In this document: piece by piece, positions 28,301 to 40,300 of the stretch
Layout of the letters: every line of letters starts with the position of its first letter
Numbering within the stretch: position 1 is the stretch's first letter
Sequence record: NZ_CP067021.1
Origin: a plasmid
Strand: one strand, 5' to 3'
Length of the DNA: 64,000 nucleotides
Position numbers: made by a program

Positions 28301-31300
28301 AGATCGAGGGGATATATTGATAGTCCACCTTTCATACAATATGTTTGCGAACGTGGTGCACGGCGATCGGTTGATCTATGGACCGTGCGTTATCCCATGC
28401 TACCTGAGCTTGCTCTAAAGTATATACGTGTGTCTTTTTACATTAATGTCTTAAACTGGCAAAATGTAAAATCAACAACTTACATCAAATCTAATTGAAT
28501 AAATCCACATTACAGTTCTAAACTCAATGGATTTTTCAGTTTAGAAAAATAGCGGTTTTTTACAATATAGTTGTAAACCTAGCCTTTCCAAATTGGTAAA
28601 ACTTCTTCAAAGGAAACTAGATAGATGGTTTGGAAGATGAACTCGTTTCATTATGGTTGGTATTTTCACCGTTACCCAATCTTTTTGTTTCTGTAACTGC
28701 TTGAGATTTTATAAAAATTACCTCTGTACACGACAAAAATAGATAACTCATTGAAATAATGTCACAATAATTGTTTTCTAACGACGAATACTATGACACA
28801 TCTCAATGAGTTATATCTTATCTTAAACAAATCTCTAAAATGGAACAAGTCACATTTAAAGTGCTTTGCGCTCATCATGCTTGTGATCATTTTAAAGCAA
28901 ACATGTAATCTTTCTTCTGCATCTAAAGCCTTGCCCATCAAGTGCTTACCACAATCATTTTATCGACGTATGCAGCGCTTCTTTGCAGGTCAGTATTTTG
29001 ATTATCGTCAAATTTCTCAGTTGATTTTCAATATGTTTTCATTCGACAAAGTGCAACTGACTTTAGATAGAACCAATTGGAAATGGGGAAAACGAAATAT
29101 TAATATCCTGATGCTCGCAATCGTTTATCGTGGAATAGCGATACCTATCCTTTGGACATTGCTTAATAAACGTGGAAATTCAGATACGAAAGAGCGTATT
29201 GCTTTGATTCAACGCTTTATAGCCATTTTTGGTAAAGACCGTATTGTGAATGTGTTCGCAGACAGAGAGTTTATCGGTGAGCAGTGGTTTACATGGTTAA
29301 TTGAACAAGACATCAACTTCTGCATTCGTGTTAAAAAAACTTCATTGTCACCAATCATTTAGGAAAGAATCATAAAATTAGTGATTTATTTCGCCATCTT
29401 AAAGTTGGTCAAATTGAATGTCGTAAACGACGGATTTTGGTTGGTCGGGTGAAACTATATATAAGTGCACTACAGTTAGAAAATGGAGAGCTTTTACTCG
29501 TCGTTTCTCCTCAGTTTAATGCCAATGCTATTCAGGATTATGCATTACGCTGGGAAATTGAAACCTTATTCAGTTGTCTCAAAGGACGCGGGTTTAATCT
29601 TGAAAATACGCGCTTGACAGACCCTAGACGAGTGAAAAAATTGATTGCGGTGTTAGCTATAAGCTTCTGTTGGTGTTACTTAACGGGTGAATGGCAACAT
29701 AATCAAAAAAAAGCGATAAAAATAAAGAAGCATGGACGACTCTCAATGAGTTTATTTCGCTATGGTTTAGACTATGTTCAAATGGCGATTCAGCGTTTAA
29801 TTGGTTTTGGGAAAAAAGAAGAGTTTAAGGAAATTTTGGCAATTTTAAGAAAGCAGAATCCTGATAGGATAAGGGTTCTGTGAAATTTGTCGTGTACAGA
29901 GAAAAATTACAATACCTAAAACAATAATACCAACCACAAGAACTATTAATAGAATTTTATTCTTTTTCATAAGATTTTATAAAAACTGCCCAAATTTAAA
30001 ATTGCAATCTTTTGCAGATGTGTATTGAGAAACAGCTCACCCATTATCTAGGGTTTCATAGTGTGTACCGGATACATTCTAAAATCTTTTATCACTTTTA
30101 GGATCAACAAACCCTGCTCTAACACGATACCCACTTGGGTTACTTGAATTATCTGTTCGTTGGTTGCCATTAGTAGCTTTTTGATCTGTTTTTACATATA
30201 GATTTTTATGTATGTACACCTGTTAAAGCATCATAAGAAATAGATTCGTTATACCAACCATATCCAAAACTTGGAATATATGCTTCTGTAAAATTTGACA
30301 TTTTTTTTAATCTCTCTTTGTTTGCAACTATATTGTTAAAGTTTAGGACTTTAATGTCCAGTTTACGTTTGTGTTGTCAAATCACATATAAAGATAAGAT
30401 CCGAGATATTAATGTTCTTCGAGCTAATAAAGGATTAAAACCTGTCAGAAAAGCAAATACAGCTGGCAGTATTTATGCTCGTTGGTATCTTGTTTATCAG
30501 GATCTTTTAATCATCATTGAGTGCCAAGTGGCTTTAAATAAAAAAGGCCCAGGTCTACCAGCTGGTATGCGTGACCTATTGTTGTACCATCTAGCAAACG
30601 CTTTAAGTTGGTTTACTATTTCAGATGCACTAGAAAATGAAGTCGCTGAGTGTGCAAGAAAATTTACTCCAAGCTTGTCACATCAAGAAGCTCTTTCTTA
30701 TTGTTCAAGTGTAATCAACCGAGCCAAAAAGACCCAAATTGAAGGTAAAGAACATCGTTATCGCTACAGACGAGAAACGATTTATCGTGAGTTAGAGGAT
30801 CTTATTCCTGAAGAAGTCTTACCACGCTTAAGGGCTATTATTCCAAATGAATTGGCAAGAGAAAGGAAGTTGGAAAGAACGTTGGAATCAAGACGAGAAA
30901 AAGGGATAGCTGAACGGGTCATCTATCGTGAAAGTCTTCAGACCAATAAATCTAAAGCGATTAAATTAAAAGCCCAAGGTTTAAAATATAAGGAAATCGC
31001 ATTAGAACTAAATCTATCCATTGATACTATTAAAGGGTATTTCAGGAAAGGTGTATTGGTATGATGCCTTGTATAGTGGCGCGTGTCAGGCGTTTACTGC
31101 ATTTGATTTGTTATGCTCTCTCCCCTTTCACAAGCTGGTGAAGCTTTATATGTTTAATAAGGAGCTTCACCATCTTTTTACAGTTAATATTTATTGAACT
31201 AATTTCATCAAACTACCAAAACTATCAATCACAGAATATTGAACTGCATCCCCCAATGATTGATTTTCTTGATTTATAGTAGCGAAGAACTTTTCAGCAC

Positions 31301-37300: not shown

Positions 37301-40300
37301 CCGCCTTGATTAATATAAACTAAGTAATATGGATATAGGCGGTTGCTTTGGCTGTTAGGCGACTCAGGATGTCGTGCTCTTAGGGTGAAAATTACTCCCG
37401 CATTTAAACCGAGTTCTGGCTGTGCAGGCACAACAGTATGTAGTCCATTCGGTAATCGCTCCAATTCAGGATGCTCTTCCATATAGCCAAGCAAATCCAT
37501 ACGGAAGTCATTCAAACCTAAATCGGTAATAGAAACCCCTGTATTGGCATCTTCCAAATCTAAAACTTCAGTTTGTAGCTTTTGCAATTGTTCACGACGA
37601 TAGGCAATATCATTGGCTTGAGCACTGAGAACGTTATCATCTCCCGTACTGGTCATATCGACGATCACCATGCGATTCTCGACCCGTTCTCGCAAGTTAA
37701 TATATTCATCCAGACTAATATCAGGCCAGTAATTAACGAGCTGAATGACGCTGTTTGATGAGCCAATACGATCCACACGCCCAAAGCGTTGAATGATGCG
37801 TACAGGATTCCAGTGAATATCGAAATTAATCAAATAATCACAGTCCTGTAAGTTTTGTCCTTCAGAAATACAATCCGTTGCAATGAGCACATCAATTTCT
37901 CTGGATTCTTCAGGGAATACGTCTGCTTTTTGCTTTGACTGTGGAGAGAATAAGGTGAGTAAGCCCTGCATATCATAGCTTTGACGGCTTCCTACTCTGG
38001 TCTTGATCGTTGAAGTATTGTCACTACCAATCACCTTGGCACTGTGCAGACCATAGCTTTGCAGCAAAATCGGTGCGATATGCTCATAGATATAATTCGC
38101 TGTATCCGCAAATGCAGTAAATATGATGACTTTACGGTTACTGGCATTAATTGGGTTCTGAATTTTCTCAACAACATGCGCTTTAAGATGCTGTAGTTTG
38201 GCATCCTTTTCAGCGTTAATTGGCTGAATCATTCGCAGTAAACCGAGAATAATGTGGTAGTCACCGTCTAGATCCGTTTTCCAGCTCAATAGATCCATAT
38301 CGGCCAAATGAATTTTGAGCTTATTACCGATGAGATCTTCAGTATTGAGTAACTCGCCATTTTCATCTTCATCGTAGCCAAAGTCTGGTGAAATACTAAC
38401 TTCATCATCCGCTTGACGTGCTTCAAAGTCGGCAATTTTAGCAAGTACATTCTCAATATTTTTCTTTAACACATTCAGCGTCAGCCTAAAAGCGTGAACA
38501 GAACTTTCTAAGCGTTTCAGTAAGTTAACGGTCATCAACGCCTGTAAGCTTTTTTCACGGTCTACCTGTCTTAACTTACCTTTGCCTTCTACACGAGTAT
38601 CAAAAATCTCTTCATATTTTCTTAAGGCACTTGGAAAGATATAACTGACTGGTGCATAAACTGACATCTTGATTAAAGAAAGATCTGCATAAATTTGATT
38701 CAGAGAAACACTATCCTGATCGGTTGATAATGCACAACGGAATGAAATTGGCTTGAGTCGTTGAGGGAACTGTCCAATATCTTTGGTGTCATAGAAAGTT
38801 TGAATGTGCTTTCTTGAACGAGCAATCGTCACGCTATCTAACAGCTTAAAGAAATCGAAATCTAGAAGGTTAAGAATTGCTTGAGTTGTCCGTTGGGCAG
38901 GATCTAGTTTTGCCCAGGCATTAAAGCTGGCCTGTGCTCTACGGAATATGGTTTCGATATCACGTTCAGTATCGAGCTTATTTTCCAATAAAACTGCATT
39001 GCCTTCATAAGCAAGGGCGAGCTGATTCTTGAGGTCAGTAAAGTGATTATTTACTGGTGTAGCAGACAACATCAGTACTTTGGTTTTCACGCCTTGACGA
39101 ATCACTTGATTCATTAAGCGGTCATAACGTGTTTCACGATCCTTGAACGTGCCACGGTTGCGGAAGTTATGCGATTCATCAATCACAACCAAATCGTAGT
39201 TGCCCCAATTGATTTTCGCTAAATCTATACCTAGGGTTTCACCACCTTTACGAGAGAGGTCCGTGTGATACAGCACATCGTAGCTAAAACGGTCTTTAGC
39301 AAAAATGTTCGTGACTAGGTTGGCGTTATAATTCGTCCAGTTTGCTCCCAATTTCTTAGGACATAAAACCAGAACGCTCTTATTGCGTAATTCATAGTAT
39401 TTGATTACGGCCAATGCAGTGAAGGTCTTACCTAACCCCACACTATCCGCCAAGATACAGCCATTATAGGTTTCTAGTTTATTGATGATGCCTACTGCTG
39501 CATCTTTTTGGAAATTGAACAGCTTATTCCATACTAAGGTATCTTGATAACCTGTGAGATCATTCGGCATGACATCTGCATTGATATCTTCCAAGAAGTC
39601 TTTGAAGATATTGTAAAGCATTAAGAAATAAATACGTTCAGGTGGATTTTCCTGATAGACAGACTCAATGTGTCGAATAATTTCACTGGTGACATCTTCA
39701 ACTTTTGAGGTGTCATTCCAAATTTGATTGAATAGCTGAATATAGGTTTGCACCATTGGTTGCTCATCAAAGCAGTTCACCATATTGGAAATCGCATTGC
39801 CTCTTTCAAAACCTAATCCCATAGGGGTAAACCCTTGAATAGGCATATAGGTTAAAGATTGCTCTGGTTTTTGAATACTTATGAATTCCTGCATAGGTGC
39901 ATTGCTATTATTTGACTTGAATATGGCTTTTCGTCGTATCCAATCTGCACATTCTTTAGCAATTGCTTTTTGTGATAACTGATTTTTTAAGTGAATTTCA
40001 AATTCTGTTCCATACAGGCTGCTTTCACGGTCTTGTTTAGGAATAACAAACTCACGTTTTTCCTTTTTTAGCTTATCTGTGACGTTATCAGCGACAAAGG
40101 TTGGAGATGTAAAAACAAATTGCAGCTCTTCGACCTTTTCTAATTCTTTTTTTAAAGCAGCATAGGCATAGATTGAAAAGTATGAAGCGGCAATCTTTAA
40201 TCTGGATTTGCTACTGAGATTTTCCCCTATATCTGAACCTAAAGTATTGTTGAGGTTATCAATGAGTTTCATAAGAGATTAGGGGTGAAATATAAAAAGA

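Follow-up and report, generated by a model that had tools for sequence, protein, structure and literature searches.

Type III restriction enzymes are textbook examples of systems in which a helicase-like ATPase acts as a sliding switch and not as a motor. Their cleavage is ATP-dependent and requires two unmethylated sites in inverse orientation, and hemimethylation is protective. SauUSI is a single-polypeptide, modification-dependent enzyme, and its active HKD site is formed by dimerisation. The closest described multi-gene systems fall into three groups. Classical Type III enzymes such as EcoP1I and EcoP15I are complexes of two Mod subunits and one Res subunit (PMC4490356). Class 1 DISARM comprises the SNF2 helicase gene drmD, the adenine methylase gene drmMI, drmA, drmB and the PLD gene drmC (bioRxiv 10.1101/2021.12.28.474362). 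BREX-related type 2 systems combine an N-terminal HKD/PLD domain fused to a SNF2 helicase with an N6 methyltransferase and DUF3780, a small standalone protein of unknown fold; they are anchored on a DUF499 (BrxC-like) ATPase, the Hma systems having HmaC as their ATPase, and these systems lack Res and have an HKD domain that is described as the active effector (PMC12839542, PMC8565338, PMC11232893). The present analysis concerns a stretch of 64,000 nucleotides (nt) of the plasmid record NZ_CP067021.1, referred to as the window, and within it an operon of four genes encoding a SNF2-family ATPase (here called HEL), a DUF4391 protein, a methyltransferase (Mod) and a restriction subunit (Res). Judged from its sequence and its relatives, the HEL-DUF4391-Mod-Res unit is a widespread and apparently undescribed four-gene variant of Type III restriction-modification, and no published description of it was found in the searchable literature.

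Four genes in one order

The four open reading frames (ORFs) all lie on the minus strand. HEL, of 1091 amino acids (aa) and assigned from its ORF, Pfam and PADLOC, is the first gene of the operon (36997..40272). It is followed by the DUF4391 gene (36317..37000; ORF and PF14335), the product of which has 227 aa when read from a TTG and 225 aa when read from the ATG at 36994, the start used in public annotations. Mod, a Type III N6-adenine methyltransferase and specificity subunit of 642 aa (34375..36303; ORF, N6_N4_Mtase and PADLOC), comes third, and Res, a Type III restriction subunit of 1056 aa with a superfamily 2 (SF2) ATPase and a C-terminal PD-(D/E)xK nuclease (31191..34361), comes last. 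These coordinates are exactly those of an earlier note made from the sequence alone. Its spacing held in part: the HEL and DUF4391 genes do overlap by 4 nt (36997-37000) with the TTG start, becoming a 2-nt gap with the ATG start, but the gaps from DUF4391 to Mod and from Mod to Res are 13 nt each and not 13 and 14.

Conservation of the arrangement was assessed by tblastn of the four window proteins against 80 genome loci and three plasmid loci (83 in all). A scan of one genome per species gave 525 genomes with a DUF4391 relative bearing the peptide E[KR]QFNRKV, and the best 80 loci were taken. The order HEL, DUF4391, Mod, Res on one strand was found in 70/70 loci with enough flanking sequence, and the 13 loci without Mod and/or Res were all cut by a contig end. 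HEL is directly upstream of DUF4391 on the same strand in 79/83 loci; in the other four it is also upstream and on the same strand, at a distance of 155 to approximately 3,200 nt, with other genes in the gap in two. The hosts include alpha-, beta- and gammaproteobacteria, Myxococcota, Desulfobacterota, Planctomycetota, Bacteroidota, Bacillota and Actinomycetota. Clustering of every ORF in the 80 loci gave no fifth conserved gene. The same order occurs in annotated plasmids of E. coli, Mycolicibacterium, Listeria (with a shortened DUF4391 in its slot), Bacillus cereus, Providencia, Enterococcus faecium and Paraburkholderia, and a Sphingobium plasmid holds a copy of the module disrupted by an insertion sequence (IS). 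Native E. coli copies are present in 10 of 5426 complete genomes and make the four-gene system easy to test. A HEL relative from Planktothrix (28% identity) stands in a different two-gene context and so marks the edge of the clade. Recurrence of the four genes in an unchanged order, without exception among the related loci examined, places the arrangement far beyond a chance neighbourhood, and the comparisons indicate that the genes are inherited together across phyla. Co-conservation of the helicase and DUF genes with mod-res, on which the earlier note had made its reading depend, was thus found across the related loci.

The Mod-Res half of the operon has the features of classical Type III systems, with mod upstream of res, DPPY placed before FxGxG, a variable central block in Mod, and an SF2 ATPase joined to a PD-(D/E)xK nuclease in Res; PADLOC files both proteins as Type III. 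Mod matches N6_N4_Mtase in Pfam and, over its full length, the PADLOC model MTase_III PDLC03634 (E 1.7e-210), and IDPPYNTG precedes DFFSGSGT, the motif order already read in the earlier note. Res matches ResIII and RE_endonuc (PF19778, E 2.3e-32) in Pfam and REase_III PDLC03647 in PADLOC (1025 bits), and stays below the cut-off of the NCBIfam Type III endonuclease model (391.7 vs 564 bits). Its Walker A motif TGTGKT and its DEPQ are invariant in 62 homologues. The endonuclease domain, delimited by PF19778, covers residues 935-1045 (31227..31559, minus strand), in which NPDW (981-984) and ETKG (1001-1004) are kept in 59/59 homologues covering the region. All four Res motifs named in the earlier note were accordingly found in every homologue that reaches them, and by sequence Res has the only intact nuclease of the operon.

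The central block of Mod, presumed to be the target-recognition domain (approximately 34821..35821, minus strand), differs greatly between three otherwise near-identical Acinetobacter operons, in which DNA identity is 42-67% over this block of about 1 kb and 92-100% elsewhere. At the protein level the best-segment identity is 61-63% for Mod and 96-100% for HEL and Res. This pattern suggests that the recognition block has been swapped between near-identical operons, as expected of ongoing specificity change. No simple-sequence repeat was found in mod, and repeat-driven phase variation of the gene is therefore unlikely.

Unlike classical Type III systems, the operon has genes for a SNF2 ATPase and a DUF4391 protein that precede mod and are co-conserved with it in the 70/70 complete loci. 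Classical systems consist of two genes only, as does the second Type III system of the window, which the earlier note had also reported and which is real: a Res of 973 aa and a Mod of 625 aa, with ORFs overlapping by 86 nt, at 6120-10833. That system belongs to other PADLOC subfamilies (REase_III PDLC03651 and MTase_III PDLC03635), and its Res is almost unrelated to that of the four-gene operon. More generally, identity between Res of the operon and the Res of classical Type III systems on plasmids reaches only about 27%, and Mod and Res fall in PADLOC subfamilies of their own. A large and widely transferred Type III clade that keeps a SNF2 motor and an orphan protein implies that the two-subunit picture may not fit all Type III systems. 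Current defence-finding tools would call only 'Type III R-M' at this locus, because they hold no model for DUF4391.

The HEL motor and its N-terminal domain

HEL matches SNF2-rel_dom and Helicase_C in Pfam and phrog_26785 with 834 bits. The SNF2 ATPase core occupies residues ~246-860 (37693..39537, minus strand), with motif I as GLGKT (279-283), motif II as DESH (365-368), motif III as SATP (403-406) and motif VI as QRFGRxDR (828-835). These four motifs, which the earlier note had recognised, are invariant in 73 homologues, and on this evidence HEL, a SNF2 ATPase, has kept every motif of its motor. It is also the best conserved of the four proteins, median identity in non-Acinetobacter loci falling from 64.7% (HEL) through 53.7% (Res) and 45.7% (Mod) to 38.5% (DUF4391). 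Over its full length HEL matches PADLOC PDLC01075, 'C3a139, HKD+Snf2' (E 8.2e-124; residues 4-1088 against positions 5-947 of a profile of 948), a label (C3a139) that could not be traced to any named system.

The N-terminal residues ~1-205 (39658..40272, minus strand) are predicted to form a PLD-fold domain without a conserved HKD catalytic motif. The fold was recognised from a predicted model of moderate confidence (pLDDT 67), the top match of which is SauUSI. Sequence methods did not detect it: a Pfam search with HEL residues 1-243 gave nothing even at E<=10, PLDc_2 included, and none of the four window proteins has a Pfam PLDc_2 match. Searching the PDB with an N-domain profile was likewise empty, and among 2806 homologues no N-terminal fragment carries a precomputed Pfam domain there. 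Alignment with hhalign of the N-domain to a true PLD protein, to a Nuc sequence and to the N-domain of a Gordonia HEL relative gave no significant match, and a global pairwise alignment was weak. The Gordonia protein, 27% identical in the motor, does have a Pfam-detectable PLDc_2/NgoFVII domain with 'PLHGKT...GSSN'. The HEL family consensus at the matching site is 'PLHGFT...SN' ('PL[H/Q]GFT').

With the HKD register set by motif spacing and by this one relative ('PLHGKT'), position 146 of HEL is H in 46/73 homologues, Q in 19/73 and S in 4/73, and position 148, the presumed Lys of HKD, is Phe in 72/73. The window protein has Q146, F148 and G152 at the presumed site. No invariant His exists in residues 1-250 among the 73 homologues, and no conserved His-Lys pair was found under any register tried. 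The sequence H94-L-K96, which is probably what led the earlier note to a PLD reading, lies in a low-confidence insertion of the model, and position 94 is Gln in 56/73 homologues. The pattern of substitutions indicates that the N-domain is a degenerate PLD module from which the catalytic HKD residues have been lost, probably retained for dimerisation or DNA contact. Since the fold has no conserved catalytic His or Lys, it is not to be counted as a second nuclease. The PLD component of the earlier note thus survives as a fold and not as a catalytic site. SauUSI (PDB 7clg) is a PLD nuclease fused to an SF2 motor, whereas HEL is without the catalytic residues and sits within a four-gene methylating system.

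These substitutions bear directly on whether the operon is instead a DISARM-like system, with HEL as a true HKD nuclease-helicase effector and Mod as a self-marker only, a reading suggested by the PADLOC label and by the earlier note. The SNF2-family ATPase, the adenine methyltransferase and a PLD-fold element in one operon are all reminiscent of Class 1 DISARM; to these can be added the full-length PADLOC match to 'HKD+Snf2', partial matches of PADLOC DrmD models to HEL and the His found at the likely HKD position in 46/73 family members. Furthermore, on the B. cereus plasmid NZ_AP022904.1 (2241-15983) HEL-DUF4391-Mod-Res is directly preceded, on one strand, by drmA and a DUF1998 gene (drmB), which makes an array of six genes. 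The plasmid is the one locus read among fifteen Bacillus plasmid records with HEL, and no such array was seen in the other taxa examined; it may be a DISARM/Type III composite, and describes the neighbourhood of one locus and not a defining feature. Apart from this plasmid, the absence of drmA and drmB reported in the earlier note was borne out, in the window by tblastn with B. cereus DrmA and DrmB, and in the 80 genome loci. Against DISARM_DrmD NF038317, HEL scores 153.8 bits, far under the cut-off of 610, over residues 569-854 only, and is not a DrmD equivalog; PADLOC DrmA models give a weak partial match on HEL. In contrast to drmC (pfam13091), the PLD fold is fused to the HEL motor and is without catalytic residues, and Type III Res and DUF4391 are not DISARM genes. 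With Phe at the Lys position in nearly all members, Gln for His in the window protein and in about a quarter of the family, no invariant His in the domain, a Pfam PLDc_2 model that finds the Gordonia and Haloferax relatives but not the HEL family itself, and an intact nuclease kept in Res, an active HKD effector is very unlikely. The 'PLD nuclease' and 'DISARM-like' elements of the first reading were overstated, and the likeness to DISARM is weak.

Resemblance to BREX-related type 2 systems is seen in the PLD-SNF2 protein, the methyltransferase and a small orphan protein (DUF3780 there, DUF4391 here), and PADLOC gives a partial match to HmaA of the candidate Hma (helicase-methyltransferase-ATPase) systems. 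The Gordonia HEL relative adjoins a class I S-adenosylmethionine (SAM)-dependent DNA methyltransferase and an ATP-binding protein. Neither a DUF499 nor an HmaC ATPase domain is present in the four proteins, and no fifth conserved gene of such a kind accompanies them in the 80 loci. Unlike in the BREX-related type 2 systems, the HKD site is degenerate here and the nuclease is in Res.

Proposed coupling of HEL and DUF4391 to Mod-Res

The DUF4391 protein matches PF14335 over nearly its whole length (E 5.7e-56; 190.5 bits, above the Pfam gathering score of 29.9; residues 8-222 against positions 3-232 of a profile of 232), and no model in PADLOC, NCBIfam or PHROGs matches it. Its AlphaFold model (pLDDT 95) has an alpha/beta domain (1-155) and a helical hairpin (173-224), with EKQFNRKVELN, the most conserved motif of the family, at the hairpin turn. 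Foldseek found no significant structural relative of this model, PDB sequence and profile searches were empty, and no informative mention of DUF4391 was found in the searchable literature. The family comprises 1381 clusters at 50% identity, and broad alignments of it contain no conserved stretch of 7-10 residues. The four-gene operon therefore offers a testable role for a family without functional or structural assignment. Three unusual public proteins were encountered. In P0161 DUF4391 is followed by an unrelated tail of 500 aa, which is not Mod, and the protein was rejected as a DUF4391-Mod fusion. P0196 and P0346 begin with the N-terminal part of HEL and run on, in frame, into C-terminal DUF4391 sequence; both were rejected as designed HEL::DUF4391 fusions and look like internal deletions across the gene boundary.

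Pairwise distances of HEL and DUF4391 are closely correlated over 53 loci (r = 0.94, partial 0.78; no significance value is attached). The other partial correlations were 0.38 for DUF4391-Res, 0.36 for Mod-Res and 0.11 for HEL-Res. These values fit an arrangement in which HEL and DUF4391 are a pair with DUF4391 facing Res. In loci L007-L083 the HEL/DUF4391 junction is almost never interrupted, unlike DUF4391/Mod and Mod/Res, at which embedded genes were found in 39/79 and 26/70 loci, respectively. The embedded genes encode a UvrD-like protein of 900 aa (16 loci), Schlafen AlbA_2, OLD-family AAA_15-TOPRIM, AAA_13 and YhcG PDDEXK nuclease proteins, and further Fic, PLDc_2, Bro-N and DUF2130 proteins and a SIR2-like/P-loop ATPase pair (by eye SIR2-HerA). 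Type I hsd loci likewise host embedded defence genes. The strong conservation of HEL, the swapped block in Mod and these embedded genes were taken as signs of a functioning defence system, and the first two, along with the invariant motifs of HEL and Res, as evidence that the enzymes are active.

The preferred reading, to which a probability of roughly 0.6 is given, is that of one plasmid-borne four-gene restriction-modification operon in which HEL and DUF4391 work with Mod-Res. Mod-Res would recognise and methylate host sites and cut unmodified DNA in Type III fashion, with Res as the only nuclease. HEL and DUF4391 would form a tight pair, probably a complex, and the dead PLD domain would serve as its dimerisation or DNA-contact module, as in SauUSI-type enzymes. 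On unmethylated DNA, the pair would act together with Mod-Res as an ATP-driven double-stranded-DNA translocase, and could serve in communication between distant sites, in clearing bound proteins, or in extending restriction to substrates poorly handled by a diffusion-based Type III enzyme, so that restriction would be strengthened or widened. DUF4391 would be the likeliest bridge between HEL and Res. HEL itself would most plausibly have descended from an HKD-SNF2 nuclease-helicase, the active site having been lost after Res supplied cleavage.

Several observations pull the other way, and the main evidence against an obligatory role of HEL and DUF4391 is the existence of plasmids with Mod-Res only. 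Searches of plasmids at E<=1e-100 for the Res clade and E<=1e-150 for HEL gave 140 records from Res vs 109 from HEL, so that about 22% of the Res-clade plasmids are without an intact HEL. The two counts are equal in Escherichia (14 records each), Acinetobacter (10), Bacillus (15) and Vibrio (3), and differ in Enterococcus (25 for Res, 18 for HEL), Lactococcus (9 and 5) and Aeromonas (6 and 2), one Aeromonas copy being broken by insertion sequences. Staphylococcus has 3 records for Res and falls outside the ten most frequent genera listed for HEL. Once identity drops under approximately 30%, the Res matches belong to classical two-gene Type III systems. On a 14-kb plasmid of Staphylococcus hominis, Mod-Res stands without HEL or DUF4391, and a Lactiplantibacillus (L. 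plantarum) plasmid has a DUF4391 remnant of 53 aa ahead of Mod-Res, which shows secondary loss in the latter. In both plasmids Mod-Res lies directly 3' of a DUF536 replication-associated gene, and both, as naturally occurring 'minimal' derivatives, could be used as controls. As some Res-clade plasmids carry Mod-Res without HEL, HEL and DUF4391 may be dispensable for restriction, with Mod-Res working alone. Further weight on the same side comes from the choice of the 80 loci through a six-sequence DUF4391 alignment, which biases them toward E[KR]QFNRKV and does not represent the whole family, and from physical linkage, which alone could yield much of the co-inheritance and distance-correlation signal. 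The N-domain model is of moderate confidence and the HKD register depends on spacing and one relative. The adaptor role of DUF4391 is plausible but a guess, because the protein has no informative homologue, and no published experiment on any family member was found. The 'hybrid or undescribed variant' on a Type III core proposed in the earlier note is consequently retained as a conserved, apparently undescribed four-gene unit, while the coupling it implied is not absolute.

The persistence of clade Mod-Res without HEL on some Firmicutes plasmids would also be expected if two independent systems travel together, namely a self-sufficient Type III pair and a separate HEL/DUF4391 system with its own trigger and effector. 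The operon tolerates splitting, as unrelated defence genes are frequent at the DUF4391/Mod and Mod/Res junctions, and the partial correlations pair HEL with DUF4391 and Mod with Res. On the other hand, every locus found by DUF4391 or HEL (>=42% identity), in at least six phyla, continues into Mod and then Res without a change of order or strand, and a HEL-DUF4391 pair without Mod-Res was never seen among the examined loci. The pair is also left without a predicted effector once the PLD domain is discounted, and the clade Res and Mod show no more than about 27% identity to classical Type III Res and have PADLOC subfamilies of their own. Two co-travelling systems are therefore considered unlikely.

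An equally doubtful possibility is that HEL and DUF4391 form a control module, which would protect the host from its own Res (in an unmethylated new cell or upon DNA damage) or regulate Mod and Res. SNF2 enzymes displace proteins from DNA, an activity suited to such a module; the unit is carried on mobile plasmids and spread across phyla, and HEL is the first gene of the operon. Mod-Res is found without HEL, and HEL is thus not strictly required for retention of the enzyme. However, a motor of 1091 aa that is better conserved than the enzyme it regulates would be an unusual regulator, small helix-turn-helix (HTH) or WYL regulators are already present upstream in several loci (a WYL protein in 9), and no sensing domain is indicated by the sequences.

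Within the preferred reading of a single four-gene operon, a stronger version can be entertained tentatively, as a possibility clearly below even odds: that the operon represents a distinct class of ATP-dependent restriction enzyme that depends on the cooperation of two different SF2 motors, a PLD-dead SNF2 translocase being tethered by an orphan-fold DUF4391 adaptor to Res-Mod. If true, the rules of Type III restriction would be changed, for instance by active translocation in place of one-dimensional diffusion or by the absence of a need for two head-to-head sites, and the Mod-Res-only plasmids would be decayed or weakened derivatives.

Setting of the four genes on the plasmid

The closest relatives of all four proteins are from Acinetobacter, and the Acinetobacter pittii plasmid pR1041-ab1-275k matches 93% of the length of the region at 99.7% identity. 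Related large plasmids have the flanks without the four genes, whereas in smaller Acinetobacter plasmids the similarity hardly extends past the four genes (window 31191 to ~40317). Repeats bracket the module. A segment of 582 bp is present as a 100% identical direct repeat at 40614..41195 and, on the other side, at 28431-28721 and 29902-30201, this left copy being split by a 1.18-kb IS4-family element (28722-29901) with its transposase in two ORFs. Each copy region holds a small ORF, and annotation of the A. pittii relative places one and the same 54-aa protein to the left and to the right of the module. A shorter repeat of 52 nt occurs in two identical copies upstream of HEL (40366-40417 and 40563-40614, plus strand), and in a third, 77% identical, just downstream of Res (31046-31097). 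Three matches in the window against 0 expected, all in the same orientation, thus bracket the four genes, and both upstream copies can form a terminator-like hairpin on the plus strand; the repeat may represent a scar of recombination, or may act as terminator or operator. Taken together, the flank comparisons and the bracketing repeats therefore indicate that the four genes are transferable as a cassette. The window was found to have no Acinetobacter pdif (XerC/D) site.

Inspection of the sequence shows a candidate extended -10 element, TGTTATAAT (40307..40315, minus strand), which precedes the HEL ATG by about 35 nt. The consensus promoter scan did not list it, because it has no good -35. 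Downstream of Res, a 248-aa ORF on the plus strand (30318-31064) corresponds to a stretch annotated on small Acinetobacter plasmids as 'DNA-primase RepB domain-containing protein', which suggests that the cassette arrived with a piece of a small plasmid. Upstream of the module, 41498-44714 encodes a SNF2-like helicase of 555 aa, a 122-aa ORF and a protein of 394 aa, for which the A. pittii relative has the annotation SprT-like. These genes are plasmid backbone and are kept in related plasmids without the four-gene cassette.

Further away, the window contains a GC-rich island at 11800-19800 (49-59% GC vs approximately 36% elsewhere). It holds a gene for an NDM-family metallo-beta-lactamase (17036-17851; 643 bits against a curated cut-off of 580) together with an IS30-family transposase (15913-16938), trpF (18225-18863), a dsbD-like remnant (18874-19743) and a truncated groEL (12089-13381), and resembles a Tn125-type blaNDM context. 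The putative defence operon is thus carried on a carbapenem-resistance plasmid. Its presence on this blaNDM Acinetobacter plasmid and on plasmids of E. coli, Listeria and Enterococcus means that the module may influence which phages and plasmids these hosts accept.

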